From a virus (taxonomy: Duplodnaviria; Caudoviricetes), in IMG/VR virus record IMGVR_UViG_3300008108_000133, positions 1-59,086 of that record: 59,086 nt of DNA; one strand, given 5' to 3'. The translations under genes were made by a program, and so were the position numbers. The notes under the pieces are model-generated. The model was not told the origin of the DNA. It saw only the letters and a list, made by a program, of their open reading frames with translations, and searched no databases. Below, one piece after another: positions 5,154 through 31,180 of this stretch; the stretch's first letter is position 1; every line of letters begins with the position of its first letter.

Positions 5154-8100
5154 GTGGCACTTAAGAAACCATCAGATTTATTTAATTCGCAAGATATCTC
5201 TGGAGTATTTGAAACGCCAGAAGTTTCTTCAGACATTGTAGAAAGTTACGATAAATTTCGTATTAACTTTGATAGAGTTAACGAACTTTCTGAAAAAGTA
5301 GAAACATTATCTCAACAACTTTCTGAAAAACTGAGCAGAACTGAACTTGAGAATGCAATGCTTTCTCAGTTAATGATTCTTGATGAAAATTTTAAGTCCT
5401 TTCAAAATCAGATTAATGGAATTAATAAAGAAGATTTAAGAGAATTTAAAAGCACTGTTTTTAATCTTGCGGAACTTGTTGGGAATATTGTAGAAAATGA
5501 GATCCCAAAATATAAAAAGCAAGTTACTAAGAGTGAACTCTATGTTAGCGAGAAAGTTAATCAAATTCAAGAAGTAATAGAAGAAAATATAATCAATATT
5601 CGTGAAGAGATTGATACTAAATTTGGTAATATTGCCGAAGTTGTTGACCATAACATTGAATGTCTTAATCAACAAATTCAAGAAAACTCGTCTAAAATTA
5701 AAGAGACTACAAAAGTTTATAATAATCTTTCTCAAGTTTTAGAAAATAAAATTTTAAAGGAAAATCAAAAATTTGAAGAATATTCGAATTTAATTAAAAA
5801 TCTTTCTTATGCATTTGATGAACTTTCTGAAATTTTTAAAGAAGAACTTTCTGTATCATCGCATCTGAATGAAGAGAAGTTCAAAGAGTATCAAAAAGAA
5901 ATTGAAAGTAGACATATTGAAATCCAAACTTCTATTGATACTCGTTTAGAAGACTATCGGAAAGATCTTGTTGATATAAAAACAGATGTTGCTATCAATG
6001 AACAGCATATCAAGAATGTAGATAACTATCTGCAAGAAAATCATAAAGAAATTGTTCAACTTAAAGAAGAAGTTTTTTCTCAGATTGAAAAATTACCTGT
6101 TGGAAATTTACAAGAGAATCTTGAAAGATTAGAAAAGAAAATTGATTACATCAAAGAAACATATTCTAAGATTGAATCTGAAGACTTAGTAAAAGAAGTT
6201 ATTTCTGAAGGTCTTTTAAACGAACCCCCAGAAACAAAGAATTCAGATTCTCTTACACCACTCAATCAAAACTTTGTAACTCTAGAACAACTTCAAGAGC
6301 ATTATCGTCTATTCATCAATCGTATTCAGCAACAGCTTGCTACCATTGGTGGTGGTGGTGAAACACAACTTAAGTATCTTGATGATGTTGTTGGTATTGC
6401 TACCGATCCAAGTTCTTATGATGGGAAGTTTCTTAAGTATGACCATTCTCTAGGTAAGTTTGTATTTGAAACTGTTTCTGGTGGTGGGGGTGGTATTCAA
6501 GGAATTCAAGGAATTCAAGGTACTGATGGTTCTAATGGCACTCAAGGTACTCAAGGTACTCAAGGTACTGATGGTGCTACTGGTACTCAAGGTATTGCTG
6601 GATCTCAAGGTACTCAAGGTATTCAAGGTTCTCAAGGAATTACGGGTTCTGGTACTCAAGGAACCACAGGATCTCAAGGCATTCAAGGTACTCAAGGTAC
6701 TGAAGGTACTCAAGGAACCACAGGATCTCAAGGCATTCAAGGTACTCAAGGTACTGAAGGTACTCAAGGAACTGTAGGTACTCAAGGCACTGAAGGTACT
6801 CAAGGAACCACAGGATCTCAAGGTATTCAAGGCACTGAAGGTACTCAAGGAACCACAGGATCTCAAGGTATTCAAGGTACTGATGGAACTTCAGGTACTC
6901 AAGGAACCACAGGATCTCAAGGTATTCAAGGTATTCAAGGTACTGAAGGTGCTCAAGGAACCCAAGGAACTCAAGGAACCACAGGTACTCAAGGTACTCA
7001 AGGTACTGAAGGTGCTCAAGGAACCCAAGGAACCACAGGTACTCAAGGTACTCAAGGTACTCAAGGTACTGAAGGTGCTCAAGGAACCCAAGGAACCACG
7101 GGTACTCAAGGTACTGAAGGTACTCAAGGAACCACAGGTACTCAAGGCACTCAAGGCACTCAAGGTACTGAAGGTGCTCAAGGAACCCAAGGAACCACAG
7201 GTATTCAAGGTACTACTGGAACACAAGGTATTCAGGGTATTCAGGGTGCTACATCGAGTGCCTTGGGATATTATGGAAGTTTTTATGACACTACCAATCA
7301 AGTTAGTGCCGGAACAACTGCAAGAAATCTAGTTGCGATTGGTCAAACTGCAGAATCATATGCGGTCAATATTGTAGACGGGACAAAAATTAAAGTAGAT
7401 AACTCTGGTGTTTATAATGTCCAATTTAGTTTTCAATTAGAGAAAACAAATGCATCTACTGATACAGTTGATATTTGGATTGCTAAAAATGGAAGTGATG
7501 TTCCATATACTGATAGTCAAATTACAATTCAAGGTGCTGGAGAAACAGAGATTCCTGCTTGGAACTTTGTATTGTCATTAAATGCGGGAGATTATATTGA
7601 ATTTTATTGGTCTTCCAGTGATGCGGATATGCAGTTGTCTACACTTCCAGCAGGAAGTAATCCAACTCGACCTGTTAGCCCTTCAGTTATTGTAACTATT
7701 GCGGAAGTAGCAAGTGCATTATCTGGAGCTTCTGGAGGAGGAACACAAGGAATTCAAGGAATCCAAGGTACTGGAGGAACTCAAGGAATTCAAGGAGCAT
7801 CGGGTATTCAAGGTACTCAAGGAATATCGGGTACTGAAGGTGCAGCAGGTACTCAAGGTACTCAAGGTACTCAAGGTACTCAAGGTACTGAAGGTGCTCA
7901 AGGAACCCAAGGAACGACAGGTATTCAAGGTACTCAAGGTACTGAAGGTGCTCAAGGAATCCAAGGAACTCAAGGAACCACAGGTACTCAAGGCACTCAA
8001 GGTACTGAAGGTGCTCAAGGAACCCAAGGAACCACAGGTACTCAAGGAATATCAGGTACTGAAGGTGCAGCAGGTACTCAAGGAACCACAGGTGCTCAAG

Positions 8101-8765
8101 GTACTGAAGGTACTCAAGGAATATCAGGTACACAAGGAATTCAAGGTACTCAAGGAACCACAGGTACTCAAGGAATATCAGGTACTCAAGGAACCACAGG
8201 TGCTCAAGGTATAACAGGTGCTCAAGGAACCACAGGTGCTCAAGGTACTCAAGGTACTCAAGGAATTCAGGGAAGTGATGGTGTAGGCACTCAAGGAATT
8301 CAAGGAATTAGTGGAGTAACTGTTTTAGGTTCAAATAATAACTATAGCGGAATCACAACTTTTAGTGGAAATGTATTTACAACTGCAGGATTGCAGGTAC
8401 AACAAGTAGAAGAAACATATAATACCTATAGTACTTCAATAGCATCTGCAGCAGTTGTTTCTCTTGATTGTTCAACTGGAAATACTTTCTACGTTACTTC
8501 AACAGTTAGTGGAAACTGGACTGCAAATCTTACCAACTTGAATTTAAGTGCAAATTGTTTGACTAATGTGACTTTGATGATTACACAAGGTACAACTGCT
8601 TATGTTCCAAATGCACTTCAAATTGGTGGTGTTTCACAAACAATCAATTGGCAAGGGGGATCAATCCCAACTGGAAATAATTCCAAGAAAGATGCAATTG
8701 CATTCACAATCTTCTATACAGGAAGTGTATATAATATCTTCGGACAACTTGTAACATTCGGATAA
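5154..8765 (+). CDS. large virion fibre protein: coiled coil + two collagen-like (G-X-Y) blocks + C1q/BclA-like domain
   Basis: ~400-aa coiled coil, GTQ/GIQ/GTE triplets, YGSFYDTT...AWNFVLSLNAGDYIE domain between the blocks. Confidence 0.8.
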   Translation: MALKKPSDLFNSQDISGVFETPEVSSDIVESYDKFRINFDRVNELSEKVETLSQQLSEKLSRTELENAMLSQLMILDENFKSFQNQINGINKEDLREFKSTVFNLAELVGNIVENEIPKYKKQVTKSELYVSEKVNQIQEVIEENIINIREEIDTKFGNIAEVVDHNIECLNQQIQENSSKIKETTKVYNNLSQVLENKILKENQKFEEYSNLIKNLSYAFDELSEIFKEELSVSSHLNEEKFKEYQKEIESRHIEIQTSIDTRLEDYRKDLVDIKTDVAINEQHIKNVDNYLQENHKEIVQLKEEVFSQIEKLPVGNLQENLERLEKKIDYIKETYSKIESEDLVKEVISEGLLNEPPETKNSDSLTPLNQNFVTLEQLQEHYRLFINRIQQQLATIGGGGETQLKYLDDVVGIATDPSSYDGKFLKYDHSLGKFVFETVSGGGGGIQGIQGIQGTDGSNGTQGTQGTQGTDGATGTQGIAGSQGTQGIQGSQGITGSGTQGTTGSQGIQGTQGTEGTQGTTGSQGIQGTQGTEGTQGTVGTQGTEGTQGTTGSQGIQGTEGTQGTTGSQGIQGTDGTSGTQGTTGSQGIQGIQGTEGAQGTQGTQGTTGTQGTQGTEGAQGTQGTTGTQGTQGTQGTEGAQGTQGTTGTQGTEGTQGTTGTQGTQGTQGTEGAQGTQGTTGIQGTTGTQGIQGIQGATSSALGYYGSFYDTTNQVSAGTTARNLVAIGQTAESYAVNIVDGTKIKVDNSGVYNVQFSFQLEKTNASTDTVDIWIAKNGSDVPYTDSQITIQGAGETEIPAWNFVLSLNAGDYIEFYWSSSDADMQLSTLPAGSNPTRPVSPSVIVTIAEVASALSGASGGGTQGIQGIQGTGGTQGIQGASGIQGTQGISGTEGAAGTQGTQGTQGTQGTEGAQGTQGTTGIQGTQGTEGAQGIQGTQGTTGTQGTQGTEGAQGTQGTTGTQGISGTEGAAGTQGTTGAQGTEGTQGISGTQGIQGTQGTTGTQGISGTQGTTGAQGITGAQGTTGAQGTQGTQGIQGSDGVGTQGIQGISGVTVLGSNNNYSGITTFSGNVFTTAGLQVQQVEETYNTYSTSIASAAVVSLDCSTGNTFYVTSTVSGNWTANLTNLNLSANCLTNVTLMITQGTTAYVPNALQIGGVSQTINWQGGSIPTGNNSKKDAIAFTIFYTGSVYNIFGQLVTFG
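6492..7250 (+). repeat. collagen-like 9-nt tandem repeat block 1 (ggtactcaa variants)
   Basis: Direct reading. Confidence 0.9.
7740..8312 (+). repeat. collagen-like 9-nt tandem repeat block 2
   Basis: Direct reading. Confidence 0.9.
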
Positions 8766-9636: not shown

Positions 9637-11445
9637 ATGCTATTTTCCAAATCTTATAGGAAATTTGATAGTAAAAAGTTTTTTGGAAAATTTAATTTTA
9701 AATCAACCAAACAACGATCAAAAACTAGTACGTCTTCTTTTAGTTATGCTGATGCCCCTAGTGTATCGGGTGAAGTAATACCTTGGGGTGTCCGCGCAGT
9801 CTGGCAAGGAGAAGACATTGCTAAACGAGGAAACTTTGCAAGCGATACTTATGCGTTTGTGATTGACTCTGGCGTATCAGATCAAACGGGAGATCTTAAC
9901 TTTGCTCCAGCAGAGTGGAGTAAGAGTTGGATTTCTGGGCAATCACCATTTACGGATGCTAATGGTCACGGAACTCATATTGCTGGAACCATTGGTGCTC
10001 TTGTTAATGGAAGGGGAATTGTCGGCGTTGCACCTGGAGCGCAGATTATTTCTCTAAAAGTCAACAATGATGCTGGTTTTGGTGATGGTTCAACAACTGC
10101 AAAGGCAGTTGACTATGCGATTGATGTTATTAATAAAAACAATCTGGATAAAAGCAAGGTCGTTATTAATCTTAGTATCAATGCGACCTTTGACCCATTG
10201 CTAAATTCGTCTGTTATTAATGGCGCTAATCAAGGTATTAAATTCGCAATTTCTGCTGGAAATAATGGAAAAGATGTAGATGGATTTTCTCCTGTGTCAA
10301 CTGGATATCATCCAAATGTCTTTACTGTTTCTGCAGTAGATAGCAGCAACAGAATGCCTTTTTGGTCTAATTGGGATCGTATTGATTCTAATGATAGTGT
10401 TGATGATGTTGATTTTTCTGCTCCTGGAGTTGGAATCCTTTCATATTATAAGAATAATCAACTCTCTGAGTTGAGCGGAACATCAATGGCAACTGCACAT
10501 ATTTCAGGTTTATTGATTACTGGTGGAGTTCAAGCGGGTAATTATGTAACTCCAAATTATTCGGATACATCAGATCCCTTTGCAATCACGAGTACACAGG
10601 TATTTAACCCTTCGGCAATAATTACATCTGGACCTTATCCGACACCTGCCCCTCCAGTATCCACATTTAAATTATCAGCACCCTCTAGCGTCAAAGAAGG
10701 TGAGACCCTGAAGGTCGATATTGCAACTACTAATCTTCGGGTTGGTTCTGACATGTATTGGCAAATTTCTGGAAATGGGATTGAGATGAATGATTTTTAT
10801 TCTATCAATAATCTCTGGGGTAATGCAATTGTTGCTGATAATGGAACATCTTCAATCAACTTTAATATTAAAAAAGATGGCATTACAGAAGGAAATGAAG
10901 TGATTAAATTTGAATTATTTGATAGTTCTCATCCAAGTACTAGAAAAAAAGTCACAGAATCACTTATTACTATTGAAGACACATCTAAGACTCCACCACC
11001 GATTCAATATCAATGGGGAACCACTGGTAATGATGTGATTAATGGTGGCGAATTTCGGGACACGATCACGGGTTCTTTGTCTTCTGGAACATCGCTGTCC
11101 GCAATGGGTTCTGGTCAAATTGATGTATTGATAGGAGGTTCTGATACTGATGTATTTGTTCTTGGTGACAGTCGTGGTATATTTTATAATGATGGAGTAA
11201 GTAATTCCTTAGGAAGATTTGATTATGCTCTCATCAAAGACTTTAAAGTTGGAGAGGACAAAATCCAAGTAAAATCTGGATTAGGCGGATATCTTTCTGA
11301 GGTTGTTAATGGAAATCTTTCGTTGTATTGGGATGTCAACAGGACGGGAAGGATAGAGACTAGTGGTTTCAGATCTGATGAATTGATTGCTGTATTTGAA
11401 GGAGTTACTGCTTTAAGTAATAGTGAGTACATTGCAGTGAGGTGA
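9637..11445 (+). CDS. subtilisin-family (S8) serine protease with Calx-beta-like and RTX-like C-terminal regions
   Basis: Catalytic triad motifs VIDSG, HGTHIAG, SGTSMA; GTTGNDVINGG and GGSDTDVFVLGD repeats. Confidence 0.9.
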   Translation: MLFSKSYRKFDSKKFFGKFNFKSTKQRSKTSTSSFSYADAPSVSGEVIPWGVRAVWQGEDIAKRGNFASDTYAFVIDSGVSDQTGDLNFAPAEWSKSWISGQSPFTDANGHGTHIAGTIGALVNGRGIVGVAPGAQIISLKVNNDAGFGDGSTTAKAVDYAIDVINKNNLDKSKVVINLSINATFDPLLNSSVINGANQGIKFAISAGNNGKDVDGFSPVSTGYHPNVFTVSAVDSSNRMPFWSNWDRIDSNDSVDDVDFSAPGVGILSYYKNNQLSELSGTSMATAHISGLLITGGVQAGNYVTPNYSDTSDPFAITSTQVFNPSAIITSGPYPTPAPPVSTFKLSAPSSVKEGETLKVDIATTNLRVGSDMYWQISGNGIEMNDFYSINNLWGNAIVADNGTSSINFNIKKDGITEGNEVIKFELFDSSHPSTRKKVTESLITIEDTSKTPPPIQYQWGTTGNDVINGGEFRDTITGSLSSGTSLSAMGSGQIDVLIGGSDTDVFVLGDSRGIFYNDGVSNSLGRFDYALIKDFKVGEDKIQVKSGLGGYLSEVVNGNLSLYWDVNRTGRIETSGFRSDELIAVFEGVTALSNSEYIAVR

Positions 11446-11539: not shown

Positions 11540-11641
11540 TGCTCCCGTTAACCGAGACCTATGGGAGGGTAAATACGTCTCTCATATCCGCACTGGAGGG
11601 TGGTGCGGAGCATAACGATACCAGTTCGTCCCCCCGAACTC
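11540..11641 (+). ncRNA. structured psbA leader, PhotoRC-II-like RNA motif
   Basis: Stems gagac/gtctc, tccgcact/ggtgcgga, agttcg/cgaact; position upstream of a phage psbA matches the known motif. Confidence 0.7.
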
Positions 11642-11662
11642 TTATCTAACACTCTTAACAAA

Positions 11663-12742
11663 ATGACTGCTACAATTTCACGTCAACAAAAATCGAATAC
11701 TTGGGAACAATTCTGCAGCTGGATCACCAGCACCGACAACCGCCTCTATGTGGGTTGGTTCGGCGTTCTGATGATCCCCTGCTTGCTTGCTGCAACTACT
11801 TGCTTCATTATCGCATTCATCGGTGCTCCCCCAGTGGACATTGATGGCATCCGTGAACCTGTTGCTGGTTCTCTGATGTACGGAAACAACATCATCTCTG
11901 GTGCTGTTATTCCTTCGTCCAATGCTATTGGACTGCACTTTTACCCCATCTGGGAAGCTGCTTCCCTGGATGAGTGGCTCTACAACGGTGGTCCTTTCCA
12001 ACTTGTTGTATTCCACTTCCTCATCGGCATCTATGCCTATATGGGACGTGAGTGGGAACTCTCCTACCGCCTGGGTATGCGTCCTTGGATCTGCGTTGCT
12101 TACAGCGCACCTGTTGCTGCTGCAAGCGCAGTGTTCCTCGTCTATCCTTTCGGTCAAGGTTCTTTCTCTGATGCGATGCCTCTGGGTATCTCTGGTACAT
12201 TCAACTACATGCTTGTGTTCCAGGCAGAGCACAACATCCTGATGCACCCCTTCCATATGCTTGGAGTTGCTGGTGTCTTCGGTGGTTCTCTGTTCAGTGC
12301 TATGCACGGTTCTCTGGTTACTTCCTCGCTGGTTCGTGAAACCACCGAGAACGAGTCGCAGAACTATGGTTACAAGTTCGGTCAAGAAGAAGAGACTTAT
12401 AACATCGTTGCTGCTCACGGTTATTTCGGTCGCCTTATTTTCCAATACGCTTCCTTTAATAACTCCCGTTCGCTGCACTTCTTCCTCGCTGCTTGGCCCG
12501 TTGTAGGCATCTGGTTCACTGCTCTTGGTGTTTCTACGATGGCCTTCAATTTGAATGGCTTCAACTTTAATCAGTCTATCGTTGATGGACAAGGTAAAGT
12601 TATTAACACCTGGGCTGACGTTCTAAACCGCGCTGGACTGGGAATGGAGGTAATGCACGAGAGAAATGCTCATAATTTCCCTCTTGACCTCGCTGCTTCT
12701 GAAGCAACTCCTGTTGCTCTTACTGCTCCCGCAATCGGTTGA
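11663..12742 (+). CDS. psbA: photosystem II D1 protein
   Basis: Full 359-aa D1 (MTATISRQQ...[13 protein letters not shown]); no intron; true start ATG 11663. Confidence 0.99.
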
Positions 12743-12762
12743 TAAAAACTCAATAGTTTTTG

Positions 12763-12789
12763 AGACCTCCTTCGGGAGGTCTTTTTTTT
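12763..12789 (+). terminator. rho-independent terminator
   Basis: agacctcc-TTCG-ggaggtct + T tract. Confidence 0.9.
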
Positions 12790-12834
12790 GTGCTCACTTG
12801 ACTAAATAGTTAAACTTATGGTATAATAAGTTTA

Positions 12835-13305
12835 ATGTTAAATAATCAAACTATGAAAACCTGCAACGTATGCGGTGAAACCAAACCGCTTTCAGAGTAT
12901 TATCCAACTCAATTCAAGAGTAAAGAGTTTCCTGATAAAATCTATTATCACGGGAAATGTAAGTCTTGTTTCATTAAAGCAAAACAAAAAGATTATACTC
13001 CAGAAAAAGGTAGAGATAAAAATCTACGATATAATTATGGTATTACACTTGAAGAATATAATATTCTTTTAAGTAATCAGGAAGGTAAATGTGCTACTTG
13101 CGGAACTACTGAGCCAGGAGGTAGAAAATCTGGAAGGGGTGGTGGAACTAATGTATTTGTTGTAGATCATTGCCACGATACTGGTAAAGTTAGAGGTCTT
13201 CTTTGCCATAGTTGTAACAGGGCTATGGGACTATTAGGAGATAATGTAAACATTATTGAAAGTATGATTAAATACCTTGAGCAGTACGAAACCAATGTCT
13301 CATAA
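12835..13305 (+). CDS. free-standing homing endonuclease, endonuclease VII family (F-CphI-like)
   Basis: CxxC zinc motifs, VDHCHDTGKVRGLLCHSCNRAMG; directly downstream of psbA with own promoter (TTGACT 12798, TATAAT 12822). Confidence 0.85.
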   Translation: MLNNQTMKTCNVCGETKPLSEYYPTQFKSKEFPDKIYYHGKCKSCFIKAKQKDYTPEKGRDKNLRYNYGITLEEYNILLSNQEGKCATCGTTEPGGRKSGRGGGTNVFVVDHCHDTGKVRGLLCHSCNRAMGLLGDNVNIIESMIKYLEQYETNVS

Positions 13306-14313: not shown

Positions 14314-14342
14314 AAAAGAAAGAGTGGTAAAACCACTCTTTT
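14312..14342. terminator. bidirectional terminator between convergent units
   Basis: aaagagtgg-taaaa-ccactcttt with A and T flanks. Confidence 0.75.
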
Positions 14343-14346: not shown

Positions 14347-14583
14347 TTAAGTTGCTGGTGGTTCAGGAACTGGTTCGGGAACTGGAACTGGTTCAGGTAC
14401 TGGAACTGGTTCAGGTACTGGAACTGGTTCAGGTACTGGAACTGGTTCAGGTACTGGGGGCTCTACAAATTCTTGATAGCACAAACATATGTCCCCATTT
14501 TTATCAATAAAATATGGTCGATATACTCTGTACATAACATTTGGCATGTACATGATTCTTGGTCTTGGTCTTAAATACTTCAT
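14347..14583 (-). CDS. Pro-rich protein with (PVPEPV)n tail
   Basis: ORF track; four exact 18-nt units actggaactggttcaggt at 14381-14452; GGGGGG RBS. Confidence 0.65.
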   Translation of the reverse strand: MKYLRPRPRIMYMPNVMYRVYRPYFIDKNGDICLCYQEFVEPPVPEPVPVPEPVPVPEPVPVPEPVPVPEPVPEPPAT

Positions 14584-14687
14584 TGAAACCCCCCTGATGA
14601 TTTACATCCGATTGTAATTGAATTTTTAACTCAAAAACCTATAGAATAAATCTACGGTGTTAATATATGAATTTGTGTCCTCCTTTC

Positions 14688-15110
14688 TTATTTGGGTTCC
14701 TCCACAGGAACATATTTGTGTTGAATTTTATAACCTAATTCACTTGGAGTCCACCATCCAGATGCAAGAGTAGATATTGAAGTTGCTAAAATTGCCGATG
14801 CTATACCAACACCAACAATCATCCATTTAATTCTAGAAACATCTTCAATTTTTTTTTCTACTAAACTCACTTTTTTATTGACAGAATTACGTACTTCATC
14901 AATCATTTTAATGATTAATTCATTAGCTTGTGAATTTTGATCTAATCTGTTTTCATGTCTTTCAAGGATAATGGCAACAGTATGATTACTTTCAGAAATC
15001 TTATCTACGGCTTTTTCCAATTTATTCAACATCTGTTTAGATAGATCTTCATAAATTTGAAATCTAGATTCAAGGACCGCAAGTTCTTTGTTGCTTATGC
15101 CAAATCCCAT
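14688..15110 (-). CDS. coiled-coil protein with C-terminal TM helix (XhlA-like architecture)
   Basis: Heptad-rich N-terminus, KWMIVGVGIASAILAT. Confidence 0.7.
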   Translation of the reverse strand: MGFGISNKELAVLESRFQIYEDLSKQMLNKLEKAVDKISESNHTVAIILERHENRLDQNSQANELIIKMIDEVRNSVNKKVSLVEKKIEDVSRIKWMIVGVGIASAILATSISTLASGWWTPSELGYKIQHKYVPVEEPK

Positions 15111-15127
15111 AGTGGATAAACTCCGTA

Positions 15128-15397
15128 TTAAATTGGAATATCGGTAGGGGGTTCAGCAGGTGCTGTGCAGATTCCTACTGATTCTGGTTCTGGTGTCATT
15201 GACTGATAAATGTCAGAATTCTGAATCACATCAGTCATAGTTCCATAGTTATCAATTCTTTGATCGACATTTGCAATCTGACTATCAATGATATTTTGTT
15301 GATAGTTATAAAATGGATTATAATATCTTCCATAATAATATGGATCAATGTTGTAATATCTTTTATAATATGGATATGGTTGATATCTGTAGTACAT
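15128..15397 (-). CDS. Tyr-rich N-terminal, acidic C-terminal protein (89 aa)
   Basis: MYYRYQPYPYYKRYYNIDPYYYGRYYNPFYNY; AGGAG RBS before ATG 15397. Confidence 0.7.
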   Translation of the reverse strand: MYYRYQPYPYYKRYYNIDPYYYGRYYNPFYNYQQNIIDSQIANVDQRIDNYGTMTDVIQNSDIYQSMTPEPESVGICTAPAEPPTDIPI

Positions 15398-15411
15398 TTT
15401 AAATCTCCTAC

Positions 15412-15552
15412 TTAGTAAGGATAGTATGGATAATGTGAATAATAAGGGCAATATCTATCATAGTAAGGATAGCACCCATAACGATAGTAGTCATAATAGT
15501 CATAGTATCTTCTATGGTAGTAGGAATAATTGTAAGGTCTCGGATAATACAT
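15412..15552 (-). CDS. 46-aa peptide, 23 of 46 residues Tyr (below the ORF-track cutoff)
   Basis: Hand-translated MYYPRPYNYSYYHRRYYDYYDYYRYGCYPYYDRYCPYYSHYPYYPY; AGGAG RBS 7 nt upstream; stop abuts next RBS. Confidence 0.75.
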   Translation of the reverse strand: MYYPRPYNYSYYHRRYYDYYDYYRYGCYPYYDRYCPYYSHYPYYPY

Positions 15553-16297
15553 TTGAGTCTCCTGTTTGGTTGGTTATCTCAAAAGTCCAAATGTCGTATC
15601 CCTCCTGTCTGATGTAATCAAAAGGAATCCAACAGTATCCGTTGTCTCCCCAACTCGTTCCAAAACTATTCTTTGCTAAGAATAATCTTTTTCCTAAATC
15701 ATAACCAACCATACACATTGCGTGCCCACCAAGACTTTTTTCCTTTCTGGAAGGAAGATATACAGTAGAAATACTTTCATTTAGATCCATAAAACTATCA
15801 TAAATTTCCATTCCAAATACAACAGGTTTGTTGTTATTCAGCACTTCAGTAATGTAATAAGTGCTAATAAGTTTTTGATACTTAAGAACCTTTCTTTTCT
15901 TGGCATCTTCATAGCATTCATCTGTTGGTTTATCATCAAACTTTTCTACGTCATAAGGCCATAGATCTTCAGAACAAACTCCAAACTTGGATAATGATTT
16001 CAGACCATCTCTTAAATAAATTCCATTATCTTCTGAAATACTTTCATACTCAGCGCGAGTGTTATAATAAATGAATAATCTACTGAGATGTATGAAGTAT
16101 TCTGGATAATTTTGCCTTACCTTCATTTCATATGCATTTGTTAACGCATTAGAACTGCAACTACCCAATGTTCCTTGTGATTCCACAATCGTATCCCACT
16201 CACGAAGATCTACAAATTCTCGTAGAACTGCGCTATTATCTGATTGATAGATGTAATCTCTTACATCGGGTAGAGATGGTTTGATATTAAAGTTCAT
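15512..16297 (-). CDS. papain-like cysteine peptidase (C1A)
   Basis: VDLREW, QGTLGSC (catalytic Cys), GGHAMCMVGYD (His), KNSFGTSWGDNGY (Asn). Confidence 0.92.
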   Translation of the reverse strand: MNFNIKPSLPDVRDYIYQSDNSAVLREFVDLREWDTIVESQGTLGSCSSNALTNAYEMKVRQNYPEYFIHLSRLFIYYNTRAEYESISEDNGIYLRDGLKSLSKFGVCSEDLWPYDVEKFDDKPTDECYEDAKKRKVLKYQKLISTYYITEVLNNNKPVVFGMEIYDSFMDLNESISTVYLPSRKEKSLGGHAMCMVGYDLGKRLFLAKNSFGTSWGDNGYCWIPFDYIRQEGYDIWTFEITNQTGDSNVLSETLQLFLLP

Positions 16298-16306
16298 TGT
16301 TCTAAA

Positions 16307-16918
16307 TTAGATAATTCTCCATTGTCCGCCACGAAATACTATAGATACTGACTGATTAGGTACTGATATAATATAATTGTTTGCATTATCAATTTTTTCA
16401 AGTCCTGATGGTTGAATAGTGATCTTTCCAGAACCTTGTCCATATTCATCTTTGATTGTATAAACTCTTCCAGTCACACCAGTAGGTAATGTAATCGTGA
16501 CTGCAGAAGCACTAAAAACTCCAATATATTCATCGTTAGCAGTTGCTGTATAAGAACCAGTAACTCCTATAGTTGCAATTAAATCTGCACCAGAAGCAGA
16601 AATAGTAATATAACCAGTAGAGTTACTAACACTAATACCAGCTCCAGCAACAATTGAAAGAACTCCTGTGTTTGAAACTGCAAATCCAACTGTATTACCA
16701 GTTGAAACTAAGTTTGTAATCGAAACACCAAGTCCAGCAACTGGATTAACAGAAGTGACAACCGCACTTTCTCCGACGCTAACTTGATTAAATGATACCG
16801 AAGCATTTGGTGAAACATCTTGTGCTATAGAAATAAATCCATCGAGCACATTAATGAAACTACCAATTCCAACCACTCCATAATCTGTTTTTGATGTAGG
16901 TTGGGCTAAGTATGCCAT
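16307..16918 (-). CDS. fibre-like protein with shared C-terminal beta domain
   Basis: AGAGISVSNSTG repeats; C-terminal YTATANDEYIGV...RGGQWRII. Confidence 0.7.
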   Translation of the reverse strand: MAYLAQPTSKTDYGVVGIGSFINVLDGFISIAQDVSPNASVSFNQVSVGESAVVTSVNPVAGLGVSITNLVSTGNTVGFAVSNTGVLSIVAGAGISVSNSTGYITISASGADLIATIGVTGSYTATANDEYIGVFSASAVTITLPTGVTGRVYTIKDEYGQGSGKITIQPSGLEKIDNANNYIISVPNQSVSIVFRGGQWRII

Positions 16919-16929
16919 TGTTTACTCCG

Positions 16930-17499
16930 TTAGATGATGTGCCAATCTCCACCGCGACAGAATATGTTTACCGATTGGTAAGGTACTTCCATAACGTATT
17001 TGTCGGCACCATCAATATAACTACCGTCAGTGGTAGTAACGGTGACCTTACGATTTCCTAATGGTGGACCCATCTCTGCTTTCACGATGATTTCACAGCA
17101 GTCGATGCAGTTCTCAGGTAATGAAATAGTAACAGGTTCGTCACTGTTGACACCGATATAGTAATCATCGCAAGTAGCAGTATAATCAGATGAAACCAGG
17201 ACGCTTTTGCACTTACAGGTACACACTCCCGGTTCCCCTTGAGGTCCTGGTGGTCCTTGCGGTCCTGGTGGTCCTTGCGGTCCTGGTGGTCCCGGAGGAC
17301 CCGGAGGGCATTCATCGGGACAATCATCGCCGTCTATAACTACATTGATATTGTTAGTGCCACCGTCACGAGTATTCAGTATCTCTGTTATTTCGGCACG
17401 AATCGACTGAATGTTTCCAAGAACATTTGGATCGTTATTTCTTTGATATTGTGCAAGAAGATTATAAAGATCAATAAGTCTTCTTTCTGCTGAGTCCAT
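16930..17499 (-). CDS. Cys-rich collagen-like protein with the same C-terminal domain
   Basis: GPPGPQ run flanked by CPDEC and CTCKC; [12 protein letters not shown]...RGGDWHII. Confidence 0.75.
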
Positions 17500-17512
17500 A
17501 GTTAGTCTCCTT

Positions 17513-17540
17513 AAAAAAAGAGGGGGAGTTATATCCCCCT
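17513..17540 (-). terminator. terminator/attenuator after the first island gene
   Basis: Minus strand AGGGGGA-UAUAAC-UCCCCCU-CUUUUUUU. Confidence 0.75.
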
Positions 17541-17561
17541 TTAGATAACTACTGAACTAAA

Positions 17562-18389
17562 TCAGCGAACAGCGTTGCTGGTGGAGGACTGACCTACACC
17601 TGCCATGGTTCCAAAGTTAACCATACCCTGACGGGTCTCAGCAATCTGACTATTCAGAGCGTTGAGTTGTGAATTAACTTGTGAGGACAGGGCAGCAAAC
17701 TGGTTGTTGAACAGACCATCTCTGACGCCCCAGTAATCTGAACGGCAACCTTGAAGGTCTGTGTTACGCTCAATCAGAAGACGATTGAGTTCATCATTCT
17801 TGAGAGAATTGATGAGGTCTCTAGTCTTCTCATTTTCGTAAGCAATTTGCTTGCTGGTGTCATACTTGCTCTCAGCAATTTCTCTGCTGAGTTGATGCTG
17901 ACCAAGTGCTACAGCAGTAGCAACTTTTTCTGTTGCAAGGGCATTAGCAGCAGCGGTCTTCTCAGTGGCAAGAAGAATTTCAGAAGATAACTTCTGAGAT
18001 GACATATCTGTGAAAGCTTTCAGAGCAGCAAGGTCACGGGAATTATCAAAGTCTCTTGCTTGAGAAGCAATATAGAAGTCAGCAGCACGTTGCTGAATCT
18101 TGTCAGCAGCTTCATCAATTTTAACTTGGTTGTTATGACCAGTGACTAAAACATCACGGTTGGTGTCTTCTGAAGAAGCAGCAATAGCATACTTGACATC
18201 ACCGAAACCTAATGCTTGCTCTCTACGAATGTCAGAATCGCCAGTGAGAACTGCTTGACGAACATCTGATGCACGAGTAGCAACATCGTAACGGATTTCT
18301 CCACGCTCTACAGAACCTTCTCTACGAATGTCTGAGTGCTGTGCTGCAAGTGCTGCCCAAGGATCGGGCATATATACTTGATCTGCCAT
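17562..18389 (-). CDS. Ala-rich helical protein, probably highly expressed (275 aa)
   Basis: AAGGAG RBS, GCT/CGT/AAC-rich codons, internal SDIRRE repeats, ENEKTRDLI motif. Confidence 0.8.
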   Translation of the reverse strand: MADQVYMPDPWAALAAQHSDIRREGSVERGEIRYDVATRASDVRQAVLTGDSDIRREQALGFGDVKYAIAASSEDTNRDVLVTGHNNQVKIDEAADKIQQRAADFYIASQARDFDNSRDLAALKAFTDMSSQKLSSEILLATEKTAAANALATEKVATAVALGQHQLSREIAESKYDTSKQIAYENEKTRDLINSLKNDELNRLLIERNTDLQGCRSDYWGVRDGLFNNQFAALSSQVNSQLNALNSQIAETRQGMVNFGTMAGVGQSSTSNAVR

Positions 18390-18429
18390 TTTTTTGTTTC
18401 TCCTTAAAGGAAAGAAAGGTTAGTTTGTA

Positions 18430-18630
18430 GAGCAATACAATCCAGATCTTCCCTGACATAATGCCAGAAGAGTCGAGTCCACAGAAGACTGTAGAAGAGT
18501 CCTCTGGGATTATTACACTTCAGAATTGGATTGTATTACCCAATTAGAGGTGAGGCATTAATAAAGGAACCATTGCTGGAATCTTTTAGTAATACATCGG
18601 GTCTCTAATGAAGAGGATTGCTCCTCTTAT
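18430..18630 (-). ncRNA. putative structured leader RNA/ncRNA (three hairpin domains, two GCAA tetraloops)
   Basis: Stems 18611-17/18622-28, 18543-49/18603-09, 18434-44/18527-37, 18458-68/18503-13; extensions pair only as G-U on the minus strand. Confidence 0.65.
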
Positions 18631-18633
18631 CAA

Positions 18634-18640
18634 TATTTAG
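18634..18640 (-). promoter_or_regulatory. T4-type late promoter motif for the island
   Basis: CTAAATA on the minus strand 5 nt before the first hairpin. Confidence 0.55.
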
Positions 18641-18645
18641 TAAAT

Positions 18646-18999
18646 TTATTTTGTCTTAAGATGAACACTTTTTCGTTCTTCTTGCCACTTCAAGAAACCT
18701 GCCATAGTATTTGGATACTTTGGTTTTCTTCTACCTCTTGGTTTCTTTTGATGTTTCATAGCGATTTCATAATTACTCCAAGTTAATTCAAGTTCTTCTG
18801 GTCCGTTATCGAAGTGATAGAATCCATCTGTCCAAAAGTCAAACGAAGATTTATTTTGTATATGATCGCACCACAATTTAAATGATGCAAATACAAATAA
18901 CCATCCAAGTCTGAGTTTTGAAAAGAAGTCTTTGAGTGTGATCATTTTTACTCCTTTAAACTCATCATTATATAGTCTGGGGTAAGTAAAAATTTTCAT
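18646..18999 (-). CDS. hypothetical protein with basic C-terminus
   Basis: ORF track; likely start MITLKD with AAGGAG RBS. Confidence 0.55.
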   Translation of the reverse strand: MKIFTYPRLYNDEFKGVKMITLKDFFSKLRLGWLFVFASFKLWCDHIQNKSSFDFWTDGFYHFDNGPEELELTWSNYEIAMKHQKKPRGRRKPKYPNTMAGFLKWQEERKSVHLKTK

Positions 19000-19053: not shown

Positions 19054-19914
19054 ATGACTTCTTCAACACTTTCACAACCTATTCAACAACGAGGATGGTT
19101 TGATGTCCTGGATGACTGGCTTAAACGAGATCGCTTTGTATTTGTGGGTTGGTCTGGATTACTACTTTTTCCCACTGCTTATCTTGCCCTTGGTGGCTGG
19201 CTTACTGGCACAACGTTTGTTATAGGGTTTATGCTTCGTCAGTTTGAGATTGCAAGACTTGTAGGCATCCGTCCTTATAACGCTATTGCTTTCTCTGGTC
19301 CTATTGCTGTATTCGTTTCTGTGTTCCTGATGTATCCACTGGGTCAGTCCAGTTGGTTCTTCGCACCTTCCTTTGGTGTTGCAGCGATTTTTAGGTTCCT
19401 CTTATTCCTTCAAGGTTTTCATAACTGGACGCTCAACCCCTTTCATATGATGGGAGTTGCTGGTATACTAGGTGGAGCATTACTCTGTGCAATTCACGGA
19501 GCAACAGTTGAAAATACATTATTTGAAGACAGTGACCAAGCAAACACTTTCAAAGCATTTGAACCGACTCAAGAGGAAGAGACGTATTCTATGGTCACGG
19601 CGAATCGTTTCTGGTCTCAGATTTTTGGTATCGCTTTTAGCAACAAGAGGTGGCTTCATTTCTTTATGCTCTTTGTTCCCGTCATGGGACTCTGGACAAG
19701 TTCCATTGGAATCATTGGTTTGGGTTTGAACTTGAGAGCTTATGATTTTGTAAGTCAGGAGATTCGTGCTGCTGAAGACCCGGAATTTGAAACCTTTGTA
19801 ACAAAGAACATATTATTGAATGAGGGAATTCGTGCTTGGATGGCTCCAGTAGACCAACCACATATGAATCTGGTGCTACCCGAAGAGGTATTACCACGCG
19901 GGAACGCCTTGTGA
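19054..19914 (+). CDS. psbD: photosystem II D2 protein with in-frame internal deletion (~67 aa); may be non-functional or an assembly artefact
   Basis: D2 N- and C-termini intact ([16 protein letters not shown]...LPRGNAL) but GTTFV joined directly to IGFMLRQ; 286 aa. Confidence 0.95.
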
Positions 19915-21331: not shown

Positions 21332-21538
21332 GACTTATATTATGATTGGATAAATAATAAAAAGTCATCTATTGGTGTGATTGTACAAGACGTTGAAAAA
21401 GTTCTTCCAGAACTGGTATCTGATACTGATCCAAAGACTGTTAATTATGATGGATTGATTGCAGTATTAATTGAAGCAATTAAAGAACAACAAGTTCGTA
21501 TCGAAGAGTTGGAGAATAATAAAATATTAAATGAATAA
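21332..21538 (+). pseudogene. orphan C-terminal fragment of a peptidase S74 tail-fibre chaperone domain
   Basis: YYDWINNKKSSIGVIVQDVEKVLPELV...[20 protein letters not shown] after an in-frame TAA; matches the C-termini of 44422 and 47491. Confidence 0.75.
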
Positions 21539-22076
21539 ATTGGAGGATTTAATATTTGTTGGAAATAATATCGATGTAATTGATTCTCTGAAAAGTTACA
21601 TCAAAAATTCCAATCTAAAATTTAAATCTGATGATGTGACTACAAAACAAAAATTTACAAAAAATCAGAGAGCATGTGATATTGCTTGGATACCTTGTAA
21701 AAAAAGCAATATTGTAAATGAAGTTCTGACTGATCTTTTAAATTCTGCTAATAATCTTAAATGGAAGTTAAATCTTTCTGAATGGCAATGTAATATACAG
21801 TATACATATTATTATCATTACAATCACCATTATGATTGGCACACTGATGTTTTAGATAATTCTAATCCAGATTTAAAAAGACTGATTACCATAGTTTATT
21901 GTTTAACTCCCAAAATTAATTACAAAGGTTGTAAGTTAGAAATCAAATATAATGATGAAATTTTTTCAAAAAAATTAGATATTGGTGATTATGTTGTTTT
22001 TCCTTCAGATTTAACTCATAGAGCAACTAAACTCATAACTGGAGAAAGAGAAGTATTAGTAGGTTGGTATAAATAA
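21531..22076 (+). CDS. 2OG-Fe(II) oxygenase (prolyl-hydroxylase-like)
   Basis: YDWHTD (HxD), FPSDLTHR, REVLVGW. Confidence 0.85.
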   Translation: MNKLEDLIFVGNNIDVIDSLKSYIKNSNLKFKSDDVTTKQKFTKNQRACDIAWIPCKKSNIVNEVLTDLLNSANNLKWKLNLSEWQCNIQYTYYYHYNHHYDWHTDVLDNSNPDLKRLITIVYCLTPKINYKGCKLEIKYNDEIFSKKLDIGDYVVFPSDLTHRATKLITGEREVLVGWYK

Positions 22077-22096
22077 TTTTTAATTGGTTTCCTTCA

Positions 22097-22795
22097 ATGG
22101 ATAAAAAAATCACAATATTGGGTGATCCATTTCCACATCTAATTGCTGAAAACTTTTATGATGAGGAAGAGTTAAAACTAATTTGGGAAGTACTTGATTC
22201 AATAACAGAAGAGCAAAAGTTTTTACCTCCCGGAAATGTTCATGGAGCATCTGCATATAAAGATGATAGATTAGTTTTTCTCACAAATCATAAAGCAATA
22301 CGATTAAACGACTTTTATGATGAGAAACCTTATTCAAATATTTTCAAATTATTTAAAAAAAAGTTTGATCCTCAGTTTTTCAATTCTTTTGTGAACAGAT
22401 TTCCTCAATTTTTAAGTTTATCAGATTTAGAAAATGCTCACTGCCTAGTAAAAGCAAGATACTATGCAGATGGAGAATATTACAAACCACATACTGATTA
22501 TAGAAGTAGTTACGCAATATTTACTTATTTCAATAAACAACCGAAAAAATATACAGGAGGAGAATTATATTTCCCTCAATATGGAAACTATCATTTTAAA
22601 TGCGAACACAATACTCTGATTCTTACTCCAGCATATGTGAAGCATTCAGTTAAAAAAGTGAATATTGGGAAAGAAGATTATAGTAATAATTTTGGTAGGT
22701 ATGCCATTACATATTTTATTGGTATGACTCCTTCACCAATGTATCCAGAACTTTCGAATAAATGGAAAATAAAAGAATGGGATTCTGAAGAATGA
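22097..22795 (+). CDS. 2OG-Fe(II) oxygenase
   Basis: YKPHTD, GGELYF, KHSV, GRYAIT. Confidence 0.85.
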   Translation: MDKKITILGDPFPHLIAENFYDEEELKLIWEVLDSITEEQKFLPPGNVHGASAYKDDRLVFLTNHKAIRLNDFYDEKPYSNIFKLFKKKFDPQFFNSFVNRFPQFLSLSDLENAHCLVKARYYADGEYYKPHTDYRSSYAIFTYFNKQPKKYTGGELYFPQYGNYHFKCEHNTLILTPAYVKHSVKKVNIGKEDYSNNFGRYAITYFIGMTPSPMYPELSNKWKIKEWDSEE

Positions 22796-23520
22796 GTAAT
22801 ATCTGTCAAATTTATCACACTTCGCATTGTGGTTCAACATTGATGTCTACTCTGTTGAGATTTTCTTCAGAAGTTTATTCTGAACCTCCTTGGTTGCCTA
22901 CATTATCTAAAAAAGAATTGTCTAAAATCTTGGACGAAAGATCTGATTGTATAATTAAATTTCCAAGCATATATTGCTTCTTTTCTAATTATTATCCTGG
23001 AAAAAAAGTATTTTTGTACCGCAATTTAAAACAACATCTAGTTAAAATTTTGTCATTAGAGAAGAAAAGAATTGACAAAATAGTTTCTCAAGTTGATTGG
23101 TATGGTAATGAATGTTTGCACCCTTTGGTTAAAAAACATTCATTAGAGACTGGTATCAAAAAAATTACAGCAATGTGGGTGAGCAGAATATTATATCTGA
23201 TGGAAGTTGAAGATGTTATGTGGATTAAGTCGAATGATTTTTTTGCAAACAAAAAAGAGATAATGAATAATGTTTGTGAGCACTTCAATGCTCCTAAAGT
23301 TGAAGATTTTTCTATTGCAGAATTTTATGTAAAAGAAGTCGGGTTTAAACCTGGAATAGAAGTTCCTTTGAGTGATATTATTCCAGACACAAAGGATAAA
23401 AAACCTATAGATTCTTCCTTTGGTATTATTGGTAATGATTGTGATGTTAATATTGAAATTGAAACTATAATCTCTTGGGTTCGTGTGAATTTTCCATCAA
23501 TTCCTTATAGTTTACTTTAA
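22792..23520 (+). CDS. sulfotransferase-like protein
   Basis: HTSHCGSTL (PAPS 5'-loop-like), SEP, FLYRN. Confidence 0.55.
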   Translation: MSNICQIYHTSHCGSTLMSTLLRFSSEVYSEPPWLPTLSKKELSKILDERSDCIIKFPSIYCFFSNYYPGKKVFLYRNLKQHLVKILSLEKKRIDKIVSQVDWYGNECLHPLVKKHSLETGIKKITAMWVSRILYLMEVEDVMWIKSNDFFANKKEIMNNVCEHFNAPKVEDFSIAEFYVKEVGFKPGIEVPLSDIIPDTKDKKPIDSSFGIIGNDCDVNIEIETIISWVRVNFPSIPYSLL

Positions 23521-23581
23521 GGATTTGTATAAATAATCAAAGAAATAAAACAGTTTATTATAATCAATCGTATACGGTAGT

Positions 23582-24892
23582 ATGCCTAATCAGTTTATGT
23601 CTCCAGAAGGAGACTTAGAAACCACTAATTATTTTGTTACTGAACATTGGTTGATTGACCAGTATGTTGGTGATAAGTTATTTGGTTGGGGTTATAATTC
23701 TAGTGGACCACTAGGAGATAATACTACAACTACTAGATATGTTCCGGTCACAACATTTGCAGGAGGAACCAACTGGAAGTCTATTGCGGTGGGACAAGGA
23801 TATGGCGGTTCTATAGCAATTAAAACTGATGGAACTTTATGGGGTTGGGGTTCTCAGAGTTTTGGAAATTTGGGTACATTCAATTTTCCATCTGCTAGTA
23901 GAATCACTCCAGTAACAACCTTTTTAGGAGGAACCGACTGGAAACAAGCTTCTGCGGAAAATGAGTGTACGGCAGCAGTTAAAACTGATGGAACTTTGTG
24001 GGTTTGGGGTACATCTACCCAACTAGGAATAAACAGAACTGGTACTAATGTATGTACTCCAGTTACAACATTTTCAGGTGGAACCAACTGGAAACAAGTT
24101 GATATTGCAAGAAGACCATATTCTTTAGGTACTAATGCTAGTTCTATGGCAGCAATCAAAACTGATGGAACCCTATGGGTTTGGGGAGATAATTTTAATG
24201 CAATGTTGGGAGTTAATGATGCAGCTACTAGATGCACTCCAGTCACAATATTTGGAGGAGGGACTAACTGGAGACAAGTTTCGTGCGGAAGCGGTTTTAC
24301 GGCTGCAATAAAAACCGATGGAACTTTATGGACTTGGGGAGTTAATACTTTTGGACAATTAGGTATCAATACAACAACCGATAGATCCACTCCAGTCACA
24401 ACATTCGCAGGAGGAACCAACTGGAAGCAAGTTTCTTGCGGATATTTACATACTACAGCAATCAAAACTGATGGAACCCTATGGATTTGGGGCGCTGGGG
24501 GTAATGGACGATTAGGGGATAATGTATCAATATCAACTAGATCCACTCCAATCACAACATTTGCTGGAGGAAACAATTGGAAACAAGTAAGTGCTGGATG
24601 GTCACATACGGCAGCAATCAAAACTGATGGAACCTTATGGACTTGGGGTTATGATGTTTATGGTTATGGATTATTAGCTCAAGGTTCTACGACTCCATCT
24701 GATAGATCCACTCCAGTTACAACATTTGCTGGAGGAACCAACTGGAAACAAGTTTCTTGTGGAAGATTTCATACTATTGCAGTAACTTCTGGTGAACAAA
24801 TAGATATCTTCGATCCTGCTGCACCTATTGTTACACCACCTGCTCCTCCACCACCTCCACCACCGCCACCAGGTGGTCGCGATGATAACTAA
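23582..24892 (+). CDS. RCC1/BLIP-II-type 7-blade beta-propeller protein with poly-Pro tail
   Basis: 7 repeats of TPVTTFAGGTNWKQVS...AAIKTDGTLWxWG; TATAAATA at 23528. Confidence 0.85.
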   Translation: MPNQFMSPEGDLETTNYFVTEHWLIDQYVGDKLFGWGYNSSGPLGDNTTTTRYVPVTTFAGGTNWKSIAVGQGYGGSIAIKTDGTLWGWGSQSFGNLGTFNFPSASRITPVTTFLGGTDWKQASAENECTAAVKTDGTLWVWGTSTQLGINRTGTNVCTPVTTFSGGTNWKQVDIARRPYSLGTNASSMAAIKTDGTLWVWGDNFNAMLGVNDAATRCTPVTIFGGGTNWRQVSCGSGFTAAIKTDGTLWTWGVNTFGQLGINTTTDRSTPVTTFAGGTNWKQVSCGYLHTTAIKTDGTLWIWGAGGNGRLGDNVSISTRSTPITTFAGGNNWKQVSAGWSHTAAIKTDGTLWTWGYDVYGYGLLAQGSTTPSDRSTPVTTFAGGTNWKQVSCGRFHTIAVTSGEQIDIFDPAAPIVTPPAPPPPPPPPPGGRDDN

Positions 24893-24928
24893 ATTAATAC
24901 TATAAATATTTAAAAAAAAAAAAGAATT

Positions 24929-25612: not shown

Positions 25613-25616
25613 TAAC

Positions 25617-26849: not shown

Positions 26850-26885
26850 TATATGATATAATACTCCTATATCATACCCAAAAAT

Positions 26886-30815: not shown

Positions 30816-31180
30816 GAGAGTGTGGAGAATGCACTGCTTGTTGCACTTGGTTACAAGGTTATGCTTATGGTTATGAGTTTGGTAGTGGAAAGTCTTGTAA
30901 GTTCTTATGTGAATCCGGATGTAGTGTACATAAGGTAAGACCAAAAGTATGTGAAGGATATTTCTGTGCTTGGGCTCAAGAACTTATATCTGAAGAAATG
31001 AGACCTGATAAGTGTGGAGTTCTTGTTTCTGTGGAAAATAATGAAAACGGTCAGTATCTTAGAATTGTTCCAATCAAAAAAGAAATAAATAAAGATATAC
31101 TAGAATATTTTAAAAATTGGAGTGTTATAATGAACACTCCTGTGATTTATCCAAAAAATAATTCCTGGGAAGTCCTCTAA
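30812..31180 (+). CDS. YkgJ-like CxxCxxCC metal-cluster protein
   Basis: CGECTACC...CKFL...GCSVH..RP.VC..Y.C. Confidence 0.75.
   Translation: MRECGECTACCTWLQGYAYGYEFGSGKSCKFLCESGCSVHKVRPKVCEGYFCAWAQELISEEMRPDKCGVLVSVENNENGQYLRIVPIKKEINKDILEYFKNWSVIMNTPVIYPKNNSWEVL

Follow-up and report, generated by a model that had tools for sequence, protein, structure and literature searches.

A gene for a protein of about 6.3 kDa, half of which consists of tyrosine, was found on a viral DNA, and the conservation of its reading frame in relatives indicates that it is very probably genuine and independently translated. The gene, named Y1, lies on the minus strand of a DNA of 59,086 nucleotides that was analyzed at its full length (the window). 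It overlaps the end of a gene for a papain-like protease and is followed by a second tyrosine-rich gene, Y2. The preliminary description had reported an ORF of 46 aa with 50% tyrosine and an extreme composition, an AGGAG motif embedded in the protease 3′ end, and a stop codon adjacent to the next ribosome binding site. The exact sequence was found on the minus strand (the strand had not been given), with the ATG start codon at 15550–15552 and the TAA stop codon at 15412–15414. Both Shine-Dalgarno (SD) motifs were confirmed. The preliminary description had overlooked that the following gene also has a tyrosine-rich N-terminus and that relatives keep the entire arrangement. The minus-strand gene row around Y1 contains the following features, listed from 5′ to 3′ on that strand:

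17562–18389, minus strand: 275-aa protein with the invariant C-terminus ..TRQGxxNFGTMAGVGQSSTxNxVR
17521–17540, minus strand: terminator-like hairpin and T-run, just 3′ of the 275-aa gene
16930–17499, minus strand: collagen-like protein of 189 aa, C-terminal domain as in the 203-aa protein
16307–16918, minus strand: 203-aa protein, predicted C-terminal beta domain like those of T4 gp9/gp10 and tailspike attachment domains
15512–16297, minus strand: C1 cysteine protease of the papain family, 261 aa, Pfam PF00112 (4.4e-15)
15559–15563, minus strand: SD motif AGGAG of Y1, 6 nt before the ATG and within the protease 3′ end
15412–15552, minus strand: Y1, 46-aa ORF with 23 Tyr, very probably a coding gene
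15405–15409, minus strand: SD motif AGGAG of Y2, 2 nt past the Y1 stop codon and 7 nt before the Y2 ATG (15395–15397)
15128–15397, minus strand: Y2, 89 aa, with a Tyr-rich N-terminus (residues 1–33), a conserved Q-x3-N-x-G-x-M-x2-V-x-Q motif and a Pro-rich tail
14688–15110, minus strand: DUF7201 coiled-coil protein (Pfam 3.2e-26; gene cluster 201 of T4-like cyanophages), encoded 3′ of Y2
14347–14583, minus strand: 78-aa (PEPV)n-repeat protein, encoded at the end of the row; L007 has a similar gene
14319–14341, minus strand: terminator-like hairpin that closes the gene row

The Y1 and protease genes overlap by 41 nt in the window, and the spacer between Y1 and Y2 is 14 nt long and holds the SD motif alone. 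The window version of Y1 includes 23 Tyr, 6 Pro, 5 Arg, 3 Asp, 2 His and 2 Cys residues and has a pI of 8.4 and a mass of about 6.4 kDa. The tyrosine background was taken from the 173 ORFs of at least 40 aa that start with ATG in the six frames of the window. Their tyrosine fraction had a median of 0.03 and a 99th percentile of 0.156, whereas the value for Y1 was 0.50, which is far beyond chance and bears out that the composition is extreme. The second-highest fraction among the 173 ORFs (0.19) was that of the downstream neighbor Y2.

The unusual composition is not confined to the window. In 20 distinct Y1 sequences taken together, Tyr accounted for 46.3% of the residues, Pro for 15.2%, Arg for 11.1%, Asp for 4.6%, Cys for 4.4% and His for 4.0%. 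Ala, Val, Leu, Ile and Gln did not occur at all, Lys made up 0.2%, and Gly (2.8%) and Ser contributed about 3% each. The pI values ranged from 8.3 to 9.3 and the masses from 5.9 to 7.3 kDa. Exactly two cysteines were found in 17 of the 20 sequences, three in two sequences and none in one, and their spacing was variable. Invariant positions in an alignment of 15 sequences were M1, Y2, Y3, Y7, Y30, Y31, P36, Y37, Y41 and P42. The composition of Y1 is maintained and not drifting. When Y1 was modeled as the partner chain in a complex with the protease, its pLDDT was below 50, and the AF2 model of Y2 had a mean pLDDT of 50; from these predictions, both proteins are read as having no stable fold on their own.

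The loci used for these comparisons came from two scans: one of viral contigs, for which the protease was the query, yielded 29 loci, and one of metagenomes, for which Y2 was the query, yielded 9 loci. A DNA-pattern scan gave 16 matches, namely 10 contigs that were already known and 6 that were unrelated. The order protease, Y1, Y2 was present in 20 of the 29 protease-query loci (L003–L020, L023 and L026), in which the proteases were 55–85% identical, and in all nine Y2-query loci, and a Y2 homolog always followed directly after Y1. The remaining nine protease-query loci (identity at most 54%) contained neither Y1 nor Y2. The 20 distinct Y1 orthologs, which occupy the same position in the related contigs, viral and metagenomic alike, are 42–53 aa long and contain 40–53% Tyr. 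A tyrosine content of 36% is obtained for L018 when translation is counted from its first in-frame ATG (69 aa); the ATG after its SD motif gives 53 aa.

A frame that is not conserved in relatives was one of the outcomes that the preliminary description would have taken as a refutation. The Y1 frame was found to be kept, and the finding survives. None of the 20 distinct sequences contained an in-frame stop codon, all insertions and deletions among them were frame-preserving, and the start codon, the SD motif and the stop codon were conserved. The GGAG core was located 6 nt before the ATG in 13 of 15 aligned sequences, the two exceptions being L019 and L020 with TAGGAAC. In all 20 orthologs, Y1 started within the 3′ end of the protease gene, with overlaps of 14–56 nt. 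The protease sequence GDSNVL near the C-terminus is the SD motif plus ATG plus TAT of Y1 read in the protease frame, and the protease tail beyond it is variable. The dN/dS values of Y1, calculated by the method of Nei and Gojobori (NG86), were 0.02–0.15 for the 23 computable pairs, with dS values from 0.2 to more than 2. Because the composition leaves two other frames open, pooled pN/pS values were compared for all six frames, using 25 pairs with 80–99.5% nucleotide identity. The value for the Y1 frame was 0.13, while the other frames gave 1.36, 0.70, 1.41, 0.25 and 2.55. The frame with the value of 0.25 contains 14–20 stops in every ortholog. Of the two additional open frames (1.36 and 2.55), one is free of stops in all 20 orthologs and the other in 19, from composition alone. 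An antisense ORF of 63 aa runs across Y1 on the plus strand (15426–15617); it is open because TAY codons read RTA on the other strand, and its pN/pS of 2.55 rules it out as a gene.

A lake metatranscriptome contig of 411 nt matched positions 15130–15532 without a difference and spans most of Y1. Such libraries can hold DNA, and the contig is therefore weak support for transcription. In the RNA runs X20 and X24, the Y1 of the window was uncovered, save for a contig of a divergent variant in X24. Contigs from RNA libraries also revealed a 1+2-nt length variant at 14400–14402, at high depth. Matches to TATAAATA, which we take to be the T4-type late promoter motif, numbered 7 in comparison to 5.35 expected, and none of them lay on the minus strand near the gene row. 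A scan for sigma-70-like promoters remained at background level.

The window is a fragment of 59 kb with a CheckV completeness of 24%, and its source is a relative of the T4-like cyanomyoviruses. It contains psbA (phrog_182, E 1e-202), which gives it a cyanophage context, and giant collagen-like tail-fiber genes, and the DNA of the DUF7201 gene is about 70% identical to that of the Synechococcus phages S-PM2 and S-RIM2. On the plus strand, psbA is directly followed by an endonuclease VII/HNH-type gene at 12835–13305 (PF02945, 2.7e-23), both within 11600–13305, and a second Photo_RC gene is located at 19054–19914 (PF00124, 2.7e-54). Carriers of the Y1-containing module were met repeatedly in the lake and freshwater metagenomes of 11 studies, and their host is probably a freshwater picocyanobacterium. 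Two relatives with the module, the records G001 and G002 with the loci L012 and L016, are complete: their genomes measure 258,362 and 249,820 bases and have direct terminal repeats. These sizes are large compared to T4-like cyanophages. In cultured phages, the Y1–Y2 DNA had only chance matches of 20–44 nt (blastn), the protease had no match above 36% identity (tblastn), and the 275-aa and 203-aa proteins had no match. The genes of S-PM2 and S-RIM2 at the syntenic place are not tyrosine-rich. The module is thus missing from cultured phages, and therefore, no virion proteome is applicable.

The order of the first six genes of the row was kept in most relatives; several lacked the 203-aa gene, and the genes after Y2 varied, with the DUF7201 gene present in some relatives only. 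The structure of the 203-aa protein was predicted with AF2, with pLDDT values of 86–92 for residues 115–203 (approximately) and low confidence for the N-terminal 114 residues. Foldseek searches with the C-terminal domain matched the N-terminal region of CBA120 TSP4, the T4 baseplate, gp9 and gp10 in the PDB (E 3e-5 to 3.5e-2) and an entry named 'Baseplate structural protein Gp9/Gp10' in BFVD (1.7e-10). The gp9/gp10-like assignment thus rests on a model with a low-confidence N-terminal part. The collagen-like protein is 44% identical to the 203-aa protein over 88 aa (BLASTP, E 3e-18), and its match to Collagen PF01391 (E 7.7e-6, 26 bits) is slightly below the Pfam cut-off of 27.2 bits. Because of the gp9/gp10-like domain matches, the block looks like a fiber or baseplate accessory module. 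With respect to this predicted fold, which the 203-aa and the collagen-like neighbors of Y1 appear to carry, the row resembles T4 gp9/gp10-type fiber attachment modules such as that of CBA120 TSP4. A literature search found no such module together with tyrosine-rich mini-proteins or a C1 protease. The last protein of the row, with its (PEPV)n repeats, has a YLRPRPR.. stretch at its N-terminus, and the (PEPV)n-like gene of L007 ends with ..SGICTTP, which resembles ..VGICTAP near the C-terminus of Y2.

The protease between the 203-aa gene and Y1 has its best solved relative in PDB entry 3ois_A (E 6.5e-41). Gln41, Cys47, His192 and Asn210 are invariant columns, which presumably correspond to Q19, C25, H159 and N175 of papain, and a large prodomain is absent. 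More than 500 viral stretches matched a profile of the protease family. A Y1-like ORF was missing from all 63 retrieved loci in which the protease identity was at most 54%, and three of these loci (L064, L065 and L067) encoded a Y2-like protein, which was located among fiber genes and away from the protease. At the place of the Y2-like genes of L064 and L065, L068 encodes a protein of 128 aa with a Trp/Tyr/Asp-rich block (..WYYDDWYYDDWYYHDWYWDYDDWYYDDYYYDWDWDY..; L068:1972–2358, plus strand), which may be another aromatic low-complexity variant. Two further genes of the window lie outside the row. A subtilase of 602 aa (9637–11445, plus strand; Peptidase_S8, 1.6e-28, with a weak, sub-threshold match to RTX calcium-binding repeats) is a second protease and is near a collagen-like tail-fiber gene for 1203 aa (5154–8765). 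The collagen-repeat protein at 47491–48630 (plus strand) has a C-terminal Peptidase_S74 intramolecular chaperone domain (PF13884, 6.6e-15) and is a self-cleaving fiber that is separate from the Y1 module.

A connection between Y2 and the first gene of the row was found in a short motif. When the central motif of Y2 was aligned to the last 33 residues of the 275-aa family, which are invariant, the hhalign probability was 94.4% (E 9e-8). The two stretches are homologous, so that one short module occurs in two otherwise different proteins, and this module is taken to be a docking or recognition element. In contrast, an origin of Y1 by duplication of the tyrosine-rich N-terminus of Y2 was unsupported (hhalign probability 21%), and their likeness is compositional. 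None of the 141 metagenome homologs of Y2 had an informative name or a Pfam domain, and a few carry a JGI automatic label that is apparently spurious. The 275-aa protein had no Pfam family, one weak PHROG match and no PDB match, and in the ESM Atlas, it fell into unnamed viral clusters only. The 'head protein' p148 of S-PM2 was considered as a relative of the 275-aa protein and turned out to be unrelated (E 41).

Tentatively, and as a possibility rather than a probability, we propose that Y1 serves the tail-fiber or baseplate accessory module as a small 'glue' subunit with a structural or assembly role and that it acts beside an anchored Y2. Y1 is a low-complexity chain that probably lacks a stable fold; it consists almost entirely of Tyr, Pro and Arg, in most cases with two Cys, and is presumably made from the protease transcript just after the papain-like protease and just before Y2. 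Y2 would be the anchored partner, with a tyrosine-rich arm and the docking motif that it has in common with the 275-aa C-terminus. Y1 would be the free tyrosine-rich partner, and aromatic stacking, Tyr–Arg contacts and disulfides would let it pack against Y2-type arms or polymers of the host surface; oxidative Tyr–Tyr cross-linking would be an optional extra that is not required. The fiber-like gene context fits a structural or adhesive role. Further points in favor of the proposal are the motif common to Y2 and the 275-aa protein, the location of the Y2-like proteins of L064, L065 and L067 among fiber genes, and the predicted disorder of Y1 and Y2. Points against it are the unsupported homology between Y1 and the Y2 arm, the low-confidence part of the model behind the gp9/gp10-like assignment, the absence of the module from cultured phages, and the start of Y1, which always lies inside the protease gene and would equally fit a protease-linked role.

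Several other explanations were weighed against a glue subunit. Y1 might be the cognate partner of the protease: it could inhibit or guard the enzyme, help it to fold or serve as its preferred substrate, and it would be kept at a fixed ratio by translational coupling and occupy the cleft until the protease is needed. The position of the start codon in all 20 orthologs, the GDSNVL tail, which is the SD motif, ATG and TAT of Y1 in another frame, the intact Gln/Cys/His/Asn set and the missing large prodomain are all in line with this explanation, and papain-family enzymes prefer bulky aromatic residues at P2. The complex prediction of Y1 with the protease had a score of 0.00 in both runs, which is evidence in neither direction. 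The absence of Y1 from the 63 loci with distant proteases shows that the protease does not generally depend on it, and the Y2-like proteins of the distant loci are not beside the protease. Co-transcription of inhibitors with papain-fold proteases is established for staphostatins, Spi and the Bacteroides Bfi/Bti proteins (PMC3462683), and Y1 resembles these pairs in that a small gene adjoins that of a papain-fold protease, with which it is presumably co-transcribed. However, these inhibitors are folded, mostly beta-sheet proteins of 105–138 aa that act on C10/C47 proteases (PMC3462683), while Y1 is a low-complexity protein of 42–53 aa (46 aa in the window) without a confident fold that is encoded beside a C1 protease. 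On balance, a role as protease partner, the strongest competitor of the glue proposal, appears rather doubtful. A role as a host-directed intracellular peptide is quite unlikely. Y1 would then be, for instance, an Arg/Tyr 'sticker' around which a condensate or aggregate forms, or a binder of ribosomes or chaperones like Pro/Arg-rich antimicrobial peptides. Its basic pI of 8.3–9.3, the combination of 46% Tyr with 11.1% Arg versus 0.2% Lys in a genome rich in AT, and the N-terminal MYYPRPY with its PRP motif, which we take to be the motif of oncocin- and drosocin-type peptides, would agree with such a function. But peptides of the latter type contain at least 25% Pro and repeated PRP motifs, whereas Y1 has 13% Pro in the window, 15.2% in the pooled sequences and a single PRP. 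Furthermore, the Gly and Ser spacers that are found in liquid-forming domains are few, the neighboring genes look structural, and no defense or counter-defense family was matched.

The remaining explanations question the function or the independent translation of the peptide. It is very improbable that Y1 is a regulatory leader ORF, the 23 Tyr codons of which sense the supply of Tyr-tRNA and set the translation of Y2, while the peptide itself is functionless. Y1 is indeed short, enriched in one amino acid and located 14 nt before the tyrosine-rich Y2, but the minus strand has no terminator or antiterminator in the stretch 15128–15552; the nearest terminator-like sites on this strand are 17521–17540 and 14319–14341. 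The non-Tyr positions (Pro, Arg, Cys and Asp) are also conserved, as is the frame with its low pN/pS, and 42–53 aa is long for a leader, as typical leader peptides are shorter. A tyrosine-rich C-terminal extension of the protease, generated by +1 ribosomal frameshifting within the overlap, could be imagined because of the overlap between the two frames and because no stop interrupts the Y1 frame in the 7 codons before the ATG (an open frame of 53 aa) and over a longer distance in some relatives. Such an extension is extremely improbable in view of the SD motif and ATG at a conserved, fixed spacing, the lack of a visible slippery heptamer in the overlap and the variation of the protease tail in length and sequence among relatives. 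Last, the two further frames that are open in nearly all orthologs would be expected if Y1 were a non-coding by-product of a TA-rich stretch. However, purifying selection was observed in the Y1 frame only, and its indels, start, SD motif and stop are those of a maintained gene. The dN/dS and pN/pS values effectively refute the by-product, which can be regarded as practically excluded.

The preliminary description had suggested that Y1 might be a di-tyrosine cross-linker, a phase-separating or DOPA-type adhesive peptide, or a coat component that absorbs UV. For DOPA or di-tyrosine chemistry to be driven by an enzyme, an oxidase is required, and host enzymes or photo-oxidation may take its place. 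When 48 window proteins were scanned with Pfam, neither a tyrosinase nor a haem peroxidase nor a multicopper oxidase was detected; ten large window proteins were scanned against PHROGs only. PF07732 (multicopper oxidase) was absent from five records of related viruses, including two complete genomes of about 250 kb, in a search with a working control. Matches to PF00264 (tyrosinase) and PF03098 (peroxidase) were likewise absent from the five records, with silent controls, and thus only the absence of the multicopper oxidase carries weight. No RiPP modifying enzyme (rSAM, P450, YcaO, LanM and the like) was present in the row at 14347–18999, which contains only the C1 peptidase, collagen-like, DUF7201 and unknown proteins, and none was seen in the relatives with the same gene order. 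A cluster of modification genes is located elsewhere in the window, at 21531–37765 on the plus strand:

21531–22076, 22097–22795, 28219–28677 and 34256–34861, plus strand: four 2OG-Fe(II) oxygenases, two of which match PF13640
33477–34259, plus strand: sulfotransferase
34858–35547 and 36215–37765, plus strand: glycosyltransferases
23582–24892, 25617–26849 and 31180–33459, plus strand: three RCC1-repeat proteins

Sulfation of the Y1 tyrosines was rejected, as a sulfotransferase homolog was found in two of the five related records and was absent from a complete genome with Y1. PF13640 is presumably prolyl-4-hydroxylase-like. Plant extensins cross-link through tyrosine and need prolyl hydroxylases, and the oxygenases of the window may be a parallel to this.

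Extensins and other Pro-rich wall proteins of plants, as well as high glycine-tyrosine keratin-associated proteins, are short matrix proteins, rich in tyrosine and with Cys or Pro, that hold fibrous proteins together. In contrast to these eukaryotic proteins, Y1 is non-homologous, contains 2.8% Gly and has no Ser-Pro4 blocks. A bacterial parallel is provided by CotC and CotU of Bacillus subtilis, which are rich in Lys and Asp. Y1 differs from them in having 0.2% Lys and 4.6% Asp, 40–53% Tyr and a richness in Pro and Arg; it has no sequence relation to them and is encoded by a phage, and its setting is that of a cyanophage with psbA without a spore-former context. The likeness is that CotC and CotU are small, tyrosine-rich outer spore-coat proteins that occur in high-mass forms, with dityrosine links having been proposed in the coat (PMC7944565). 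Y1, with 46 aa and 50% Tyr, is also small and very tyrosine-rich, and the Bacillus proteins are part of a structural or protective layer (PMC7944565).

An extension of the glue proposal, which we consider unlikely, would make Y1 and Y2 a tyrosine-based cement. Y2 would dock on the fiber or the 275-aa scaffold via the NFG motif, and Y1 would polymerize on the tyrosine-rich arm of Y2 by stacking, disulfides and light- or ROS-driven Tyr–Tyr links. The accessory fibers would thereby be hardened or made sticky, and the protease would trim or release the cement.

Sequence catalogs contain almost no trace of Y1. A word-index search of an index of 5.8 billion proteins returned zero candidates, and a profile of 15 Y1 sequences had a single match of 45 aa (E 2.8e-5) among 1.84 billion representative proteins, which shows that gene callers largely miss Y1. 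Searches with Y1 and Y2 against Pfam, PHROGs and PADLOC matched 0 families, the ESM Atlas held nothing usable for Y1, and relatives of Y2 were not found in cellular genomes. A search of the full text of papers found no description of tyrosine-rich phage or cyanophage proteins. Having no relative and no described phage analog, Y1 is rated as lying outside the known kinds.

Taken together, Y1 would be among the most tyrosine-rich natural proteins if it is made as its conservation says. The recurrence of its carriers in the metagenomes of 11 studies indicates that it is probably ecologically common. A chain of 6 kDa made of Tyr, Pro and Arg without aliphatic residues is a tractable synthetic model for aromatic self-assembly, adhesion and the control of a protease. 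If the cement proposal were true, Y1 and Y2 would be a viral analog of the chemistry of spore coats and extensins, and they would form the first virion adhesive built from a peptide with about 50% Tyr. The Y1 family is a concrete case of functional small genes that are hidden in phage genomes.
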